Source: Escherichia coli (GTDB taxonomy: Bacteria > Pseudomonadota > Gammaproteobacteria > Enterobacterales > Enterobacteriaceae). Taken from it: a DNA stretch of 64,000 nucleotides. The position numbers were made by a program, and so were the translations under genes. The notes below the pieces were generated by a model that had not been told where the DNA came from, searched no databases, and worked only from the letters and a program-made list of their open reading frames with translations. Positions 1,738-7,007 of this stretch are shown here, piece after piece. Each line of letters begins with the position of its first letter. Position 1 is the first letter of the stretch. The stretch is from NCBI RefSeq assembly GCF_030013595.1, contig NZ_CP122768.1. One strand, 5' to 3'.

Positions 1738-2484
1738 ATGGAACAAGCGCATACCCAGCTGATTGCCCAACTGAACGAGCGTATTTTAGCGGCGGATAAC
1801 ACGCCGCTTTATATTAAGTTTGCCGAAACGGTAAAAAATGCCGTGCGCAGCGGGGTGCTGGAGCATGGCAATATTTTGCCCGGTGAGCGTGATTTAAGTC
1901 AGTTAACCGGCGTTTCGCGCATTACGGTGCGCAAGGCGATGCAGGCGCTGGAAGAAGAGGGCGTGGTGACGCGTTCGCGTGGTTACGGCACGCAGATCAA
2001 CAACATCTTCGAATACTCGTTGAAAGAAGCGCGAGGTTTTTCTCAGCAGGTGGTATTGCGCGGGAAAAAGCCCGATACGCTATGGGTTAACAAGCGTGTC
2101 GTGAAATGTCCCGAAGAAGTCGCGCAGCAGCTGGCGGTCGAAGCGGGAAGTGATGTCTTTTTGCTTAAGCGTATTCGCTATGTCGATGAAGAAGCGGTAT
2201 CGATTGAGGAATCGTGGGTTCCGGCGCATTTAATTCATGATGTTGATGCCATCGGGATTTCACTTTATGACTATTTCCGCAGCCAGCACATTTACCCACA
2301 ACGTACGCGTTCCCGCGTTAGCGCCCGGATGCCGGATGCCGAGTTTCAGTCACATATTCAGTTAGATAGCAAAATACCGGTGCTGGTGATCAAGCAAGTG
2401 GCGCTTGACCAACAGCAACGGCCTATTGAGTACAGCATTAGCCACTGTCGCAGCGATCTATACGTTTTTGTGTGCGAGGAGTAG
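1738..2484 (+). CDS. yegW: GntR/HutC-family transcriptional regulator
   Basis: 248-aa ORF; N-terminal winged-HTH region (LPGERDLSQLTGVSRITVRKAM) typical of GntR regulators; recognised as YegW. Confidence 0.85.
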   Translation: MEQAHTQLIAQLNERILAADNTPLYIKFAETVKNAVRSGVLEHGNILPGERDLSQLTGVSRITVRKAMQALEEEGVVTRSRGYGTQINNIFEYSLKEARGFSQQVVLRGKKPDTLWVNKRVVKCPEEVAQQLAVEAGSDVFLLKRIRYVDEEAVSIEESWVPAHLIHDVDAIGISLYDYFRSQHIYPQRTRSRVSARMPDAEFQSHIQLDSKIPVLVIKQVALDQQQRPIEYSISHCRSDLYVFVCEE

Positions 2485-3423
2485 TTCCTCGCGCGTTGGC
2501 GCACAATCACCGCCCCGATGCCCGACAACCCACGACGCCACTGCATTGCCCAGTAATACGGCATCCGCCAGTGGCAGACCAGAGGCCAGCCCGGCAAGTA
2601 CGCCACCGGCATGACTGTCGCCCGCCCCAATGGTGTCGACAACTTGCGTTGGAAATGCCGGAATGCAGCCAGAAGCGTCGTTGCTGAAATACCATGCGCC
2701 TTCTTTATCGAGACGAACGATCAACGGCGCGGCAAATTTCTCCTGCCATTGCTTGCCAAGTGTTGTTATCTCTGCGGATAAAGCAAAACGTTCGGCGGCA
2801 ATCTCAGCCTCTTGACGATTGAGCGACACTAAAGGTCGACAGGCCATGATCCGCGCCAGTAATGCATCCGGGATATCGCCAATACGTGGGCCAAAATCGA
2901 TAAACGGCGTCACGTCTTGCAGCTCTTCCAGCCATTCCACTAACAATTCGCCGCAGGGCGAGGCCAGTTGATAACCGGAAAAATAGAGCAGGCTGCCAGG
3001 CGCAACGGTTAATCGCGCCAGCCACTGGCGATTCCACTGATTTTCCACACCGCTGAATGACATAAAAGTGCGTTCGCCATCCGGCTCAACCAGCGCCAGA
3101 CACCAGCCGTTATCACCTTCGGCGTTATCGATCAGGCTGATTAAGCCCTCTTTTGCCATCCGGTTGCGAATAATCTCCGCCCACACGCCCTGACCGAGCG
3201 GCAAGGCATTACCCGCTTCGATGCCGAGGCGCTTTAACGCCACGGCAATATTCAGTGCGCAGCCGCCAACGTTAACGCTCTGCTGTTTCAGTTCGATATC
3301 GCACCCACGCCAGGGGAGGGCATAAGCGTCGGCGATCACGTCAATGACCGCCGCGCCGACGACCATCACCGGCTGACGCGTGGTTAATTCAGGCAGCAGC
3401 GTGTGTAATCGAGCGCCGCTCAT
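2458..3423 (-). CDS. yegV: PfkB/ribokinase-family sugar or nucleoside kinase
   Basis: 321-aa ORF; C-terminal TIGAGDSHAGG matches the PfkB signature; 3' end overlaps yegW by 27 nt (convergent). Confidence 0.85.
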   Translation of the reverse strand: MSGARLHTLLPELTTRQPVMVVGAAVIDVIADAYALPWRGCDIELKQQSVNVGGCALNIAVALKRLGIEAGNALPLGQGVWAEIIRNRMAKEGLISLIDNAEGDNGWCLALVEPDGERTFMSFSGVENQWNRQWLARLTVAPGSLLYFSGYQLASPCGELLVEWLEELQDVTPFIDFGPRIGDIPDALLARIMACRPLVSLNRQEAEIAAERFALSAEITTLGKQWQEKFAAPLIVRLDKEGAWYFSNDASGCIPAFPTQVVDTIGAGDSHAGGVLAGLASGLPLADAVLLGNAVASWVVGHRGGDCAPTREELLLAHKNV

Positions 3424-4424
3424 ACCGCCTCCCGTTGTTGACGATATTTCGCCAGCGCTGTGGCATAGCGGTTGAAATCAAGCTGATTTACCGCATCCAG
3501 TTCCGCCTTTAACGCAGGATCGATAGCGTTAACGCCATGCAACGCGCCGCAAATTGCCGTCGCCATAGCACCGATGGTGTCTGTGTCGCCGCCAAGGTTA
3601 GCGCACAGGACGGCGCAGCGATTCGGGTCGGTTTGTGCCAGTTCAACCAGCGCAATGGCGCACGGAACGGACTCAATAGTGCTGGTACCTGCGCCAACGA
3701 CCTGGTAAAGCTGTTCGCTGGCGGATTCGGTGCCGTCGGCATTGCGCACAATTTTCAGCGCAATCTCCAGCCGCGCCGCCAGTGAGGCGCTGAACGTAGT
3801 GATGCGTTTTTGCTGTGCATGTCGCGCAATTGAAGGCAGGGAATCAACAATCGCTGACCAGCTTTCTCCGTCAATGGCACGAGAAATCGCCCATGCGATG
3901 ACTACCGCGCCTGCAACCGCCAGATCGGATTTATGGGTCGGGCTGGACGCCAGCGCTACATCATCAATAAAGGAATCAACATCACGCGCCGGAAGCAAAC
4001 AACCTAATGGCGAGACGCGCATCGCTGCGCCGTTGGTCACGCCGTTGTTTTCCAGTTCAGCAACGGGTTTACCGTCGCGAATGGCGTTAAGCGCAATCTT
4101 CGAGGTCGGACCTAGCACGTTTTTGTTGAAGGCGTCGAAACGCAGCGCCCAGTCGAGGATATTACGCCCAATCAGATCCGGATCGATCTTGCCTTTACGT
4201 TCCAGCAACGCATCCGCCAGACACAGCGCCATCGAGGTATCGTCGGTGAATTCGGCGCGGTTAAAATAACAGGCCGCGTTATTCTCCTTTGGTCCAGGCA
4301 GAAAACGGTCAATCCAGCCAAAGTGTGCTTTAACGCGGCTGCGTGGCCAAAGCTCGGAGGGCATCCCCATCGCATCCCCTAACGCCTGCCCATAAAGAGC
4401 ACCGAGAATACGTTCTGTTTTCAT
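3420..4424 (-). CDS. yegU: ADP-ribosylglycohydrolase-family hydrolase
   Basis: 334-aa ORF; start overlaps the yegV region by 4 nt and its stop overlaps the yegT start (operon arrangement); recognised as YegU. Confidence 0.85.
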   Translation of the reverse strand: MKTERILGALYGQALGDAMGMPSELWPRSRVKAHFGWIDRFLPGPKENNAACYFNRAEFTDDTSMALCLADALLERKGKIDPDLIGRNILDWALRFDAFNKNVLGPTSKIALNAIRDGKPVAELENNGVTNGAAMRVSPLGCLLPARDVDSFIDDVALASSPTHKSDLAVAGAVVIAWAISRAIDGESWSAIVDSLPSIARHAQQKRITTFSASLAARLEIALKIVRNADGTESASEQLYQVVGAGTSTIESVPCAIALVELAQTDPNRCAVLCANLGGDTDTIGAMATAICGALHGVNAIDPALKAELDAVNQLDFNRYATALAKYRQQREAV

Positions 4425-5698
4425 TTAACTTCCCCTTGTGTCAACGCAATATCGCGATCATCGACCTTGATAGCCGTAATTTCGTTGTCGGATTCGCGGA
4501 AAAAAATCATGAACAGCACGGCGATAATGGCAATCATCACCGCGCCAAAAGTCCACATCCCGGACCAGTTGAAAGTCAGTCCGTTTACCGGTTCCTGATA
4601 AGCGAACATCTTTTCCATCATCACACCGCCAAGACGATAGCCGAGCAAACTGCCGAAGCCCTGGCAGCAGAGCGTGATCAGCCCCTGCGCGGCGGTACGC
4701 ATATGCACGGGGGCTTTTTTATCGACATAGATGTAAGCGGTAACGTAGTAAAAATCGTAACTTACGCCGTGAAGCAAAATACCGAGGAACAGTAACGCGT
4801 AGGTGAAATATTCATCCGCACTACCGTAAATAAAGAAGCCATAGCGGATCGCAGCGGTGACCAGACCAAGCAATAATACCTTTTTGATACCAAAGCGTTT
4901 AGTGAAAAACGGTAATGCCAGCATAAAGAATATTTCAGAGAACTGGCCGAGCGTCATCCAGCCGGTGGCATTTTTCATGCCGACTTCGGTCAGATAACCG
5001 TTGGCAAAGATGTAATAGAACGCCAGTGGCATCGCAAACAGGAATGAACAGAAGAAAAAGACGAGGAAGTTTTTATCGCGCAGCAGGATCAGCGCATCCA
5101 GGCCGAGCATGACTTTAATATCCATTTTGCCGGTGCTTTTTGGTGGCGTGTCGGGCAGGAAAAACGCAAACACACCGAGCAGAGCAGAACTTCCGGCGGT
5201 AATCAGCAGCGGGATGTTAGTCGGTGAGATATCGGCATACCCCAGTATTTGCGGCAAGAAACCACATGCCAGACCGGAGGCAATCCAGCCGATAGTGCCC
5301 ATCACACGAATGCGCGGGAAATCACGCTCCACATCCGGCACGTTGGCAAAAGCGATGCTGTTAGTCAGCGCAATGGTCGGCATATAGGTTAGAGAGTAAG
5401 CCAGCAGTAACGGAAAGAACCCGGCAAAAGTGGTCTGTTGCGCAGCGAAATACATCAGCAGCGCGCCTGCGAACATCAATACCGCCAGCACTTTTTGCGC
5501 CGAGAAAAAGCGGTCAGTGATGGAGCCAACCAGAATTGGCGACAGGATCGCCGCAATGGCGGTACAGGCATACGACCAGCCAATTTCTCCGGCACTAAAA
5601 CCGCTTTTACTTAACCACAACCACAATGGCACAAACCACGCGCCCCAGATAAACCATTCAACAAACATCATGAACGACAGCTTTGCTGTTGTTTTCAT
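4421..5698 (-). CDS. yegT: nucleoside:H+ symporter family MFS transporter
   Basis: 425-aa ORF, highly hydrophobic with multiple predicted TM segments; first gene of the yegTUV operon. Confidence 0.85.
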   Translation of the reverse strand: MKTTAKLSFMMFVEWFIWGAWFVPLWLWLSKSGFSAGEIGWSYACTAIAAILSPILVGSITDRFFSAQKVLAVLMFAGALLMYFAAQQTTFAGFFPLLLAYSLTYMPTIALTNSIAFANVPDVERDFPRIRVMGTIGWIASGLACGFLPQILGYADISPTNIPLLITAGSSALLGVFAFFLPDTPPKSTGKMDIKVMLGLDALILLRDKNFLVFFFCSFLFAMPLAFYYIFANGYLTEVGMKNATGWMTLGQFSEIFFMLALPFFTKRFGIKKVLLLGLVTAAIRYGFFIYGSADEYFTYALLFLGILLHGVSYDFYYVTAYIYVDKKAPVHMRTAAQGLITLCCQGFGSLLGYRLGGVMMEKMFAYQEPVNGLTFNWSGMWTFGAVMIAIIAVLFMIFFRESDNEITAIKVDDRDIALTQGEVK

Positions 5699-5954
5699 CT
5701 TTTAATTCCTTCATGACAGGTAATGTAAGGTACGCGATGACAATACCACTTAATAATACCTTTTAAATACCTTTACGGTGAAAACTTGACCGCGCTAACA
5801 TTTTTTCTGATGAATCGAGCCAACAGAAAACGCTGAAAAAACATCCAAAAGATGGAAAAACTCGCCCGTAACGACCAGGATTATGATTGCCCGCAAAAGG
5901 CGGGCCAGGACAATCCATAGCCGATATCCAATCGGAATTTACGGGAGCATAGTA

Positions 5955-7007
5955 ATGACAGATATTGCGCAGTTGCTTGGCAAAGACGCCGACAACCTTT
6001 TACAGCACCGTTGTATGACAATTCCTTCTGACCAGCTTTATCTCCCCGGACATGACTACGTAGACCGCGTAATGATTGACAATAATCGCCCGCCAGCGGT
6101 GTTACGTAATATGCAGACGTTGTACAACACCGGGCGTCTGGCTGGCACAGGATATCTTTCTATTCTGCCGGTTGACCAGGGCGTTGAGCACTCTGCCGGA
6201 GCTTCATTTGCTGCTAACCCGCTCTACTTTGACCCGAAAAACATTGTTGAACTGGCGATCGAAGCGGGCTGTAACTGTGTGGCATCAACTTACGGCGTGT
6301 TGGCGTCGGTATCGCGGCGCTATGCGCATCGCATTCCATTTCTCGTCAAACTTAATCACAACGAGACGCTAAGTTACCCGAATACCTACGATCAAACGCT
6401 GTATGCCAGCGTGGAGCAGGCTTTCAACATGGGCGCGGTGGCGGTTGGTGCGACTATCTATTTTGGCTCGGAAGAGTCACGTCGCCAGATTGAAGAAATT
6501 TCTGCGGCTTTTGAACGTGCGCACGAGCTGGGCATGGTGACCGTGCTGTGGGCCTATTTGCGTAACTCCGCCTTTAAGAAAGATGGCGTTGATTACCATG
6601 TTTCCGCCGACCTGACCGGTCAGGCAAACCATCTGGCGGCAACCATAGGTGCAGATATCGTCAAACAAAAAATGGCGGAAAATAACGGCGGCTATAAAGC
6701 GATTAATTACGGTTACACCGACGATCGTGTTTACAGCAAATTGACTAGCGAAAACCCGATTGATCTGGTGCGTTATCAGTTAGCTAACTGCTATATGGGC
6801 CGGGCTGGGTTGATAAACTCCGGCGGTGCTGCGGGCGGTGAAACTGACCTCAGCGATGCAGTGCGTACTGCGGTTATCAACAAACGCGCTGGCGGAATGG
6901 GGCTGATTCTTGGACGTAAGGCGTTCAAGAAATCGATGGCTGACGGCGTGAAACTGATTAACGCCGTGCAGGACGTTTATCTCGATAGCAAAATTACTAT
7001 CGCCTGA
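5955..7007 (+). CDS. fbaB: fructose-bisphosphate aldolase class I
   Basis: ORF track extends to 5883, but the internal ATG at 5955 ([19 protein letters not shown]) gives the 350-aa FbaB with a GGGAG Shine-Dalgarno 8 nt upstream. Confidence 0.88.

Follow-up and report, generated by a model that had tools for sequence, protein, structure and literature searches.

The pseudouridine catabolic system of E. coli combines a transporter (psuT/yeiM), a PfkB-family kinase (psuK/yeiC) and a glycosidase (psuG/yeiN); the substrate is a known C-glycoside, and the glycosidase acts on its 5'-phosphate, yielding ribose 5-phosphate and the base. Another close comparison is the STM4065-4067 operon of Salmonella enterica, whose GntR-type regulator we take to be STM4068. 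This operon encodes a permease, the aminoimidazole riboside (AIRs) kinase STM4066 (PDB 1TYY), which is a PfkB protein with proven riboside 5'-kinase activity, and the ARH-family protein STM4067, a putative ADP-ribosylglycohydrolase that contributes to gut persistence in pigs (PMC3161100).

The region described here is ggaR(yegW)-yegTUV, a known core locus of E. coli, lying in a 64-kb window (the whole stretch of DNA that was analyzed, 64,000 nt). A 9-kb query spanning the locus is covered to at least 80% in 5098 of 5426 complete E. coli genomes, and the RefSeq annotation in E. coli has the identical four genes. On the plus strand, yegW, now ggaR (1738-2484), encodes a 248-aa GntR/HutC-family repressor in which a wHTH at the N-terminus is followed by a C-terminal UTRA effector domain. 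On the minus strand the operon begins with yegT (4421-5698), encoding a 425-aa NHS-family (MFS) H+ symporter, continues with yegU (3420-4424), encoding a 334-aa hydrolase of the ADP-ribosylglycohydrolase (ARH) fold that we predict to be a glycosidase acting on the YegV product, and ends with yegV (2458-3423), encoding a 321-aa PfkB-family kinase that we predict to be a riboside 5'-kinase. Both junctions, yegT/yegU and yegU/yegV, are ATGA overlaps. The four reading frames and strands given in the first-pass annotation match the ORF list and RefSeq exactly, and all four of its family assignments were borne out by Pfam profile matches. Its description of the module as uncharacterized, on the other hand, is outdated: the module is already partly characterized, with YegW published in 2024 as GgaR (PMC10819704) and a crystal structure of YegT (8ZOJ) published in 2025.

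We propose, with a probability of roughly 0.55, that the operon encodes a compact route by which a non-canonical riboside is imported, phosphorylated and then cleaved. YegT would import the riboside, YegV would phosphorylate the ribose 5'-OH with the aglycone still attached, and the ARH-type two-metal site of YegU would then hydrolyze the C1' bond, leaving ribose 5-phosphate and the free aglycone. The three-gene logic would be that of the pseudouridine system, namely a nucleoside-type transporter, a PfkB-family riboside 5'-kinase and a metal-dependent glycosidase. However, the pseudouridine system uses a PsuG-family glycosidase and a CNT transporter (a pseudouridine transporter is mentioned in PMC11241209) where yegTUV uses an ARH fold and an NHS transporter, and the kinase-first order that we infer for yegTUV has been demonstrated for pseudouridine. 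The parts list also resembles that of STM4065-4067, which is nevertheless a distant paralogue of yegTUV and not an orthologue: YegV matches 1TYY with E = 1e-4, and Salmonella has a separate YegU orthologue of 84% identity.

YegT matches the Pfam Nuc_H_symport profile (3.5e-184), scores above the NCBIfam TIGR00889 cut-off, and is identical in sequence to PDB 8ZOJ except for the engineered K267A. It belongs to the same family and fold as the NHS nucleoside:H+ symporters NupG and XapB, at about 27% identity, and shares with them the ribose-contact residues and the GxxxD protonation site (PMC8042404, PMC11979927). In our alignment the counterparts of the NupG ribose contacts (R131, T135 and E255 in YegT) are conserved, whereas the base-contact residues differ (PMC8042404). 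For YegT, neither binding nor uptake was detected with the canonical nucleosides (U, C, A, G), xanthosine or gemcitabine (PMC11979927, PMC11241209). The first-pass proposal that the substrate is some ribosyl compound fits the nucleoside negatives, the retained ribose contacts and the comparative genomics presented below.

The order of steps in that proposal, in which cleavage followed uptake and preceded phosphorylation, is probably reversed, as YegV resembles a riboside kinase and not a free-ribose kinase. If YegU instead acted first, cleaving the riboside to ribose and aglycone, YegV (Pfam PfkB, 2.5e-56) would be a dedicated ribokinase, and its top NCBIfam and PDB matches are indeed ribokinases, aligned over their full length. 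Gene fusions and operon adjacency are compatible with either order. However, YegV reached no NCBIfam equivalog cut-off, scoring 82 bits against the 299.65 set for ribokinase, and E. coli already has RbsK. Within the YegV family D28, G53-G54, N58, N202/E205 and D269 are invariant, and D28, G53-G54, N58 and D269 correspond to RbsK D16, G41-G42, N46 and D255, so that YegV keeps the residues with which ribokinase binds the ribose cis-diol and carries out catalysis. RbsK N14 and K43, by contrast, presumably contact the anomeric side of the ribose, and they are replaced by V/F/I and, in 51 of 55 family sequences, by Cys, much as adenosine kinase has L16 and S65 there. The N-terminal column of adenosine kinase was aligned by eye, since MAFFT misplaced it, and the residue roles assumed for RbsK, adenosine kinase and NagR are those of the published structures, with the sequences verified for RbsK and adenosine kinase. 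This pattern suggests a kinase for ribosides more than one for free ribose. To our knowledge, the ribose 5''-oxygen is phosphorylated in all ARH substrates described so far, and PnuC-type uptake, which serves some relatives of the module, works by kinase trapping of the transported molecule; together with the riboside-kinase-like residues of YegV, these points argue for phosphorylation before cleavage, and we regard the hydrolase-first order as unlikely. It should be noted that the best characterized relatives of YegV by sequence are ribokinases, an observation that leaves some weight with the hydrolase-first order.

YegU matches the Pfam ADP_ribosyl_GH profile (PF03747, 1.8e-66), and its nearest solved structures are MJ1187, itself without an assigned function, and then ARH3. 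Residues E24, T60, D61, D62, D280, D282 and T283 align with the catalytic and metal residues of ARH3; with all seven kept, YegU is predicted to be catalytically competent. ARH3, DraG, Tri1 and MJ1187 share this fold family (PF03747), and the strong profile match and intact active site would also suit a genuine ADP-ribosylhydrolase which, like DraG, Tri1 and ARH3, reverses ADP-ribosylation of a protein or nucleic acid, with its neighbors merely incidental. We consider this highly improbable. YegU scores 80 bits against a DraG cut-off of 337 and 69 bits against 490 for Tri1, and no ADP-ribosyltransferase partner was found nearby among the ORFs or in the annotation. Unlike ARH3, DraG and Tri1, YegU sits in a metabolic operon and has kinase fusions among its relatives, and the linkage to a PfkB kinase is wide and tight, with small-molecule transporters linked as well. 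Moreover, in the HMMER alignment YegU has substitutions or deletions at ARH3 F143, S148 and Y149, which we take to contact the adenosine or the diphosphate.

The extent of this linkage is apparent from genome comparison. A YegV-like gene lies on the same strand within 2.5 kb of the YegU homologue in 65 of 78 genome loci, from Vibrio to Lachnospiraceae, with an intergenic gap of at most 200 nt in 48 loci, and the ARH and PfkB domains are fused in a single polypeptide, in both orders, in 9 of the 10 long YegU relatives tested. The partner transporter is of the NHS type in 29 loci, NCS1 in 18 and PnuC-family in 15, with ECF-type transporters in others. Comparative genomics thus strengthens the idea of a riboside module. 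The neighborhood comparison found no recurrent aglycone-processing gene beside the module, and the surrounding genes thus offer no hint about the aglycone. Homologues of YegU and YegW stand without an adjoining kinase or transporter in Edwardsiella and Serratia marcescens, which does not sit well with a riboside pathway.

YegW matches Pfam GntR (3e-16) and UTRA (2e-36), the architecture of the HutC subfamily, which it shares with NagR/YvoA and DasR, the nearest solved structures. All three are local repressors of an adjoining uptake and catabolism operon. NagR/YvoA and DasR sense sugar phosphates, whereas the reported effector of GgaR is a nucleotide sugar, ADP-glucose. YegW retains an Arg pair whose NagR counterpart, we assume, binds the effector phosphate, a further point in favor of the kinase acting first. 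In the published work, which includes ChIP-chip, EMSA, Northern blotting, RT-qPCR and EMSA with ADP-glucose, GgaR is a repressor with yegTUV as its single target. A cell contains about 20-30 molecules of GgaR, which binds in the fbaB/yegT spacer and, more weakly, at a site within yegT; the 3.3-kb yegTUV mRNA that it keeps off is derepressed about 30-fold when ggaR is deleted (PMC10819704).

According to the published reading, yegTUV directly makes, imports or spares ADP-glucose, and GgaR senses ADP-glucose and sets glycogen by glucose supply. ADP-glucose at 10-100 uM releases GgaR from DNA in vitro and neither ADP nor glucose does so; a ggaR deletion contains 2-3 times more glycogen; and additional glucose increases yegTUV mRNA about 3-fold, an effect that requires GgaR (PMC10819704). 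That paper also cites a screen for low glycogen in which a yegV deletion was reported (PMC10819704). On the other hand, no proposed reaction explains how ADP-glucose could be raised by a PfkB kinase and an ARH hydrolase together with a symporter, and only three compounds were tried as effectors (PMC10819704). The NCS1, PnuC-family and ECF partners carry small uncharged vitamins, bases and ribosides, which points to uptake of a riboside and away from a nucleotide sugar of internal origin. Overexpressing a transporter 30-fold, with slower growth, could raise glycogen indirectly, and standard yegW or yegV deletions may alter the C-terminus of the partner protein because the two genes overlap by 27 nt. 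We consider a direct role in ADP-glucose metabolism unlikely. Under the riboside pathway, the true GgaR inducer would probably be a phosphorylated intermediate, with ADP-glucose a mimic or a second signal. The sole reported effector is ADP-glucose and the reported phenotypes are limited to glycogen, biofilm and starvation survival; none of these is obviously derivable from riboside catabolism, and they count against it.

GgaR may recognize GGTAT boxes that stand in tandem and overlap with the promoter of yegT. The candidate primary operator (5739-5771, minus strand) has three direct GGTAT(T) boxes at 5771, 5760 and 5747, spaced by 11 and 13 nt and located at -73 to -49 relative to the yegT ATG, with a conserved GTACC at 5733-5729 immediately outside it. 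Such direct repeats, one helical turn apart, differ from the usual short palindrome. The GGTAT-pair pattern has two matches in the window against 0.00 expected by chance, and pairs spaced 10-13 nt pick out, across all 64 kb, only the two published GgaR-binding regions. The primary operator falls within a 190-bp probe bound by GgaR (PMC10819704); its boxes are invariant in our alignment A2, and GGTAy-N6-GGTAy occurs upstream of yegT in 24 of 24 loci, from Escherichia to Vibrio. A near-copy inside yegT (4859-4891, minus strand; +808 to +840) is a candidate secondary, weaker site, within probe-5 (+571 to +869), which is bound at higher GgaR concentration (PMC10819704). It is found in 12 of 24 yegT orthologues, and its sequence is partly constrained, coding for G-I-K-K-V. 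A promoter-like site for yegTUV (5753-5782, minus strand; -35 TTCACC, 18-nt spacer, -10 TATTAT) overlaps the operator boxes, its -10 lying in the invariant second box; the consensus scan that located it is weak alone, since it found two sites in 4.4 kb where 3.6 would be expected.

The convergent layout and the 27-nt tail-to-tail overlap of yegW and yegV (2458-2484, both stop codons included), noted in the first pass, agree with the ORF coordinates. The suggestion there that convergent transcription could interfere is plausible in view of overlapping transcripts but sits less easily with the roughly constant GgaR protein. The yegV-yegW pair is listed among the RNA-seq-defined convergent excludons of E. 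coli, with overlapping transcripts in at least 50% of 58 transcriptomes (PMC12288877), and our scan found no intrinsic-terminator-like site after either gene. Since the last 27 nt are shared and no terminator lies between, induced yegTUV transcription would run antisense into ggaR. We give about even odds to a simpler account, in which the overlap is lineage-specific compaction with no regulatory role and the convergent transcripts merely end or decay. In its favor, the overlap is 4 nt in Tatumella and gives way in Providencia to a 32-nt gap that contains a hairpin, with the module otherwise the same; GgaR protein is roughly constant over media and growth phases (PMC10819704); and the operon is essentially silent in wild type, so collisions would be rare. 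The transcript overlap and the lack of terminator-like sites speak against it, as does the strict conservation of the same 27 nt in all 17 measurable Enterobacteriaceae and Pectobacterium loci, though this may reflect only conserved C-termini. Antisense transcription into ggaR could sharpen yegTUV induction. Like other convergent excludons, yegV-yegW pairs convergent genes with overlapping transcripts (PMC12288877), but here the coding sequences themselves overlap and one partner represses the other, creating a potential feedback loop.

The yegW-yegTUV region is an ordinary core locus of E. coli that has already been described. The ORF list reproduces exactly the coordinates and strands that the first-pass annotation had read from the sequence, with yegW (1738-2484, plus strand) converging on yegV (2458-3423), yegU (3420-4424) and yegT (4421-5698), all on the minus strand, and Pfam agrees with its family assignments: GntR plus UTRA (HutC subfamily) for YegW, PfkB for YegV, ADP_ribosyl_GH for YegU and Nuc_H_symport for YegT. 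The 9-kb stretch around these genes is 95-99% identical to E. coli chromosomes and at least 80% covered in 5098 of 5426 complete genomes, and the RefSeq E. coli annotation shows the same four genes flanked by thiMD-yegX and fbaB-gatYZ. Short ATGA overlaps join yegT to yegU and yegU to yegV; Shine-Dalgarno-like sequences lie just before them, a layout suggestive of translational coupling. Calling the module uncharacterised was outdated, since work on the regulator GgaR (the yegW product; PMC10819704) and on the structure of YegT (PMC11979927) had been published. Nevertheless, yegTUV belongs among the conserved operons of E. coli without an assigned function, and the interest left in the locus lies in its substrate and in the possible phosphoriboside-hydrolase role of a large clade of ADP-ribosylglycohydrolase-fold (ARH) proteins.

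A tie between the two enzymes comes from other genomes. A full-library search with YegU returned 236 representative clusters at E <= 1e-30, and among the best 150 of these were a dozen relatives of 600-760 residues; nine of the ten long relatives tested combine ARH with PfkB domains in one protein, in both domain orders. Such fusions connect YegU with YegV in the Rosetta-stone sense. A one-genome-per-species scan then gave 78 YegU loci, from Escherichia (98% identity), Vibrio, Aeromonas, Bacilli, lactobacilli, Lachnospiraceae, other Clostridia, Dialister and Parasutterella, with Chloroflexi and Streptomyces at 35-37% identity. By tblastn, a YegV-like gene lies on the same strand within 2.5 kb at 65/78 loci (within 200 nt at 48), a YegW-like GntR/UTRA gene is present at 52/78 and a transporter at 61/78. 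From the fusions and these counts, a kinase, a predicted glycosidase and a transporter are thus found together in operons at YegU loci. A literature search found no paper, beyond those cited here, linking ARH-family with PfkB-family proteins.

The type of transporter varies. NHS proteins like YegT occur at 29 loci (Enterobacterales, Vibrio), NCS1 proteins at 18, PnuC-family proteins (PF04973) at 15 (Clostridia) and ECF-type transporters at some metagenomic and other loci, while Serratia oryzae has an NCS1 gene within the operon and an NHS gene adjoining it. The NHS, NCS1, PnuC and ECF families carry ribosides, bases or vitamins, and an exchange of transporters beside an unchanged pair of enzymes would be expected for uptake of one small uncharged substrate class. 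A search of the YegU loci for a recurrent operon mate that would name the aglycone found none beyond the homologues of YegU, YegV, YegW and the transporter; the single, non-recurring neighbors were an isochorismatase, PNP_UDP_1, DeoC and a phosphopentomutase-like gene by Pfam, together with one GMP reductase and one AraC-type regulator taken from sequence reading only. Since nothing else recurs beside the module, the pathway appears complete with two enzymes, and the context does not name the aglycone. Two candidates were considered. Nicotinamide riboside was raised by the PnuC-family partners and by the isochorismatase (nicotinamidase-like) neighbor, and was not adopted because the latter occurs at one locus. 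ARH enzymes cleave alpha-linked ribosyl bonds, which brought in the alpha-ribosides of cobamide lower ligands; no cobamide genes co-occur at the YegU loci, and this candidate is speculation.

YegU itself has a single Pfam match, to the ADP-ribosylglycohydrolase family (PF03747, 1.8e-66). Its E24, T60-D61-D62 and D280-x-D282-T283 align to E41, T76-D77-D78 and D314-x-D316-T317 of ARH3; among 24 homologues D61 and D282 are invariant, T60, D62, D280 and T283 are kept in at least 90%, and E24 is kept in most, being replaced in four more distant ones. To judge from these alignments, YegU is catalytically equipped, and its near-invariant R218 is a candidate for a pocket binding the 5'-phosphate. Its membership of this family raises the reading of YegU as a true macromolecular ADP-ribosylhydrolase, which is unlikely in this genomic context. 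Furthermore, in the HMMER alignment F143 of ARH3 is replaced by N, S148 is deleted and Y149 is replaced by V; these ARH3 residues contact the adenine or the diphosphate, and their loss speaks weakly against an ADP-ribosyl substrate, ADP-binding residues being variable among ARH subfamilies. YegU also scores far below the DraG and Tri1 models (79.7 bits against a cut-off of 337, and 69.3 against 490). YegT is the only one of the four proteins to reach a curated NCBIfam cut-off (NHS subfamily, TIGR00889), whereas YegV and YegU fall far under every equivalog model, including those for ribokinase, DraG and Tri1, and are family members of undefined specificity.

YegV is a PfkB-superfamily protein (PF00294, 2.5e-56) with the GG lid hinge, the NxxE motif and the catalytic Asp of GxGD. 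We aligned 54 kinases adjoining YegU homologues and the YegV of the window (55 sequences) with E. coli ribokinase, RbsK, whose sequence was verified against 1GQT; human adenosine kinase was verified against 1BX4. G53-G54, N202/E205 and G266-A-G-D269 of YegV are kept in 53-55 of the 55 family members. D28, G53-G54, N58 and the catalytic D269 correspond to D16, G41-G42, N46 and D255 of RbsK, with D28 and N58 present in the family without exception; D16, G41-G42 and N46 hold the 2',3'-diol of ribose. RbsK N14 and K43 cover free ribose on its anomeric side; the YegV family has V, F or I in place of N14 and, in 51/55 members, Cys in place of K43. Adenosine kinase has Leu and Ser at these two positions (its N-terminus was misplaced by MAFFT, and this segment, including the D-2 position, was compared by eye, anchored on the conserved Asp), and the conserved aromatic Y151 of the YegV family aligns with F170 of adenosine kinase, its adenine-stacking residue. 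With 82.1 bits against a cut-off of 299.65 for the ribokinase equivalog TIGR02152, and with N14 and K43 replaced, YegV is probably not a ribokinase proper. Because the ribose-diol and catalytic residues are kept while N14 and K43 are replaced as in adenosine kinase, YegV looks like a riboside kinase.

For the import step, YegT has what is expected of an NHS transporter: a 12-TM MFS architecture, a profile score above the cut-off (654.9 bits against 446.1 for TIGR00889; PF03825, 3.5e-184), the ribose-contact residues and the TM10 GxxxD site, with a structure available (8ZOJ). The ribose-contact residues of NupG are identical in YegT and the base contacts differ (PMC8042404); on the window sequence we found R131, T135 and E255 of YegT at the positions of NupG R136, T140 and E264. 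In the study that solved this structure (Xiao et al., 2025, PMC11979927), ITC gave no signal with uridine, adenosine, cytidine or guanosine, and YegT was negative in uptake assays with uridine, cytidine, xanthosine and gemcitabine (PMC11241209).

The first-pass annotation had proposed uptake, cleavage and then phosphorylation of a ribosyl compound, and this is partly supported: the idea of a module for a ribosyl compound is strengthened, whereas the order of its two enzymatic steps is probably reversed, since YegV looks like a riboside kinase. Uptake of the PnuC type operates by kinase trapping, and in every known ARH substrate the 5''-oxygen of the ribose bears a phosphoryl group. Together with the YegV residues, these two points lead us to favor import, 5'-phosphorylation and then cleavage, and we infer that YegU acts on the 5'-phosphate. 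The closest known system in how the module works is the PsuT/PsuK/PsuG pathway of pseudouridine catabolism, which follows the order favored here, import, 5'-phosphorylation and cleavage; however, YegU matches PF03747 only and is not of the PsuG/YeiN family, so the likeness lies in the working and not in membership. In parts list, the closest system is the Salmonella STM4065-4067 operon, a paralogous ARH-kinase operon in which a PfkB kinase phosphorylates aminoimidazole riboside and the ARH gene affects persistence in the gut of pigs (PMC3161100), although YegV is only distantly related to the Salmonella kinase (1TYY, E = 1e-4).

With a probability that we put at roughly 0.4, the YegU-clade ARH proteins may not be ADP-ribosyl hydrolases; they would instead provide the glycosidase step in a riboside salvage pathway of two enzymes, widespread and so far overlooked. 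A PfkB riboside kinase would act first and an ARH-type phosphoriboside hydrolase second, fed by interchangeable NHS, NCS1, PnuC or ECF transporters, in Enterobacterales, Vibrio, gut Lachnospiraceae, lactobacilli and Actinobacteria; as substrate we would expect a non-canonical riboside present in the gut, perhaps an alpha-linked or modified one. Its identity would give a large ARH-fold clade its first metabolic, rather than ADP-ribosyl-removing, function, would show the cargo of YegT-type NHS transporters and would clarify whether the link to ADP-glucose and glycogen is direct. The analysis leads to specific tests, through a kinase-first order, a defined candidate operator, an enzyme pair backed by fusions and a list of excluded substrates.

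The published reading is that yegTUV has a role connected with ADP-glucose and glycogen. GgaR repression was established by ChIP-chip, EMSA, Northern analysis and EMSA with ADP-glucose (PMC10819704). YegW has a single genomic target by ChIP-chip (Saito et al., 2024, PMC10819704), binding the fbaB/yegT spacer and, with less strength, the +571 to +869 part of yegT; yegTUV is one 3.3-kb mRNA, undetectable in the wild type and derepressed about 30-fold without YegW; ADP-glucose at 10-100 uM frees YegW from DNA, which neither ADP nor glucose does; and a yegW mutant accumulates more glycogen (PMC10819704). That reading, for all that it draws on the inducer and the mutant phenotype, proposes no chemistry for YegT, YegU or YegV and sits awkwardly with the swapping of transporter types, and we regard it as improbable. 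Under riboside salvage, the change in glycogen seen in E. coli when ggaR is mutated would be a secondary effect. In our follow-up literature search on GgaR and yegTUV we found nothing newer on the enzymes YegU and YegV.

The regulator itself is consistent with either inducer. Residues 29-87 of YegW form a GntR winged-helix DNA-binding domain (PF00392, 3.1e-16) and residues 108-242 a UTRA effector domain of chorismate-lyase fold (PF07702, 2.3e-36), the top PDB matches being NagR/YvoA (the nearest) and DasR. In the alignment to NagR/YvoA, R145 and R147 match the Arg pair that in NagR binds the effector phosphate; its retention fits a phosphorylated GgaR inducer, whether ADP-glucose or the YegV product.

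We identified a candidate primary GgaR operator at 5739-5771 (minus strand), with three GGTAT(T) boxes at 5771, 5760 and 5747 (-73, -62 and -49 on the yegT strand), and a candidate site inside yegT at 4891-4859 (minus strand; +808), which is the near-copy GGTATCAAAAAGGTATTATTGCTTGGTCTGGTC with boxes at 4891 and 4880. Both elements fall within the two fragments bound by GgaR in the published gel shifts (PMC10819704). GGTAT pairs spaced 10-13 nt occur only at these two places on both strands of the 64-kb window, and a degenerate 33-nt pattern built from both copies gives 2 matches against 0.00 expected from shuffles. GGTAy-N6-GGTAy is found upstream of yegT in all 24 loci having this gene and the internal copy in 12; an alignment of 13 genera, from Escherichia to Vibrio, shows no variation in the two GGTATT boxes or in a GTACC lying downstream of them (5733-5729). 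A promoter-like site of yegTUV (-35 at 5782-5777, -10 at 5758-5753, minus strand), from a consensus scan that alone does no better than chance, overlaps the boxes, as expected for a repressor. The motif was not defined in PMC10819704 and is a small addition to that work. No GgaR box that would point to autoregulation lies near yegW in the window.

Several further features of regulatory regions were seen. Just upstream of the GGTAT boxes, a conserved block AaATGTTA-N4-GnTCA (5787-5804, minus strand) is kept across Enterobacterales and partly in Vibrio in the alignment of fbaB/yegT spacers, and could be the true -35 region or the site of another factor. In three Bacilli loci (L048, L050 and L055; Oceanobacillus, Paenibacillus and Virgibacillus), the YegU-NCS1-YegV operons are preceded by perfect or near-perfect palindromes, for example ACTCATACGTATGAGT, with no GGTAT repeats; these are probably the local operator of a YegW-like regulator. 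The longest fbaB ORF (5883-7007, 374 aa) exceeds the 350-aa RefSeq protein, which starts at window position 5955; the upstream extension would cut into the shared fbaB/yegT spacer and is probably not translated.

At the other end of the operon, the 27-nt overlap of yegW and yegV on which the first-pass annotation had remarked is real, the two frames sharing 2458-2484 including both stop codons. Seventeen Enterobacteriaceae and Pectobacterium loci share the overlap and the C-termini ...LYVFVCEE and ...LLLAHK(N/D)V. In Tatumella the overlap is 4 nt, and Providencia has a 32-nt spacer with a symmetrical hairpin, so the 27-nt overlap is lineage-specific and not part of the definition of the module. 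No terminator was found between or after the convergent genes. A 7-bp hairpin (2474-2492, GCGAGGA-gtagt-TCCTCGC) spans the yegW stop, with no U-tract on either strand and only partial conservation in other genera; compared with shuffles, the minus-strand fold of 2440-2520 is modestly more stable (z = -2.97), whereas that of the plus strand is not (z = -0.84).

As the coding sequences share 27 nt, full-length yegW and yegV mRNAs must overlap. Consistent with this, yegV-yegW is among 165 listed convergent excludons, pairs whose transcripts overlapped in at least half (50%) of the 58 E. coli transcriptomes examined (PMC12288877), so that overlapping transcripts follow from the coding sequences and have been seen by RNA-seq. 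The GgaR protein level was reported as constant (PMC10819704), in conditions where the operon is nearly silent. Once the operon is induced, antisense transcription into ggaR could produce a positive feedback. It should also be noted that a deletion of yegW or yegV keeping only the last 21 nt of the gene, which would be the Keio design, would remove the stop codon and last codon of its partner. With deletions of this kind, published yegW and yegV deletion phenotypes (glycogen) may be confounded by the shared 27 nt.

Some YegU loci depart from the usual arrangement. In L036, L038, L039 and L047 (Edwardsiella, Serratia marcescens and Serratia bockelmannii), a YegU homologue stands together with a YegW homologue (63-65% identity in the three full-length loci) without an adjoining kinase or transporter. 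The flanking genes, read from sequence and gene order, are phoPQ on the upstream side and purB beyond the YegW homologue on the downstream side, and yegU is still preceded by GGTAy boxes in Serratia marcescens (L038) and Edwardsiella ictaluri (L039). In the Firmicute loci L085 and L074, a protein of 700-850 aa precedes the YegV-YegU pair; as read from its sequence, it has an ARH-like N-terminal part and a long extra C-terminal region, which would give the cluster a second ARH paralogue of divergent sequence. Finally, yegX (859-1686, GH25-family) sits between thiD and yegW in E. coli, whereas in Citrobacter, Enterobacter, Kluyvera and others thiD-thiM adjoins yegW directly; with a G+C content of 0.484, under that of its neighbors, yegX looks as if it had been inserted in the lineage of Escherichia.
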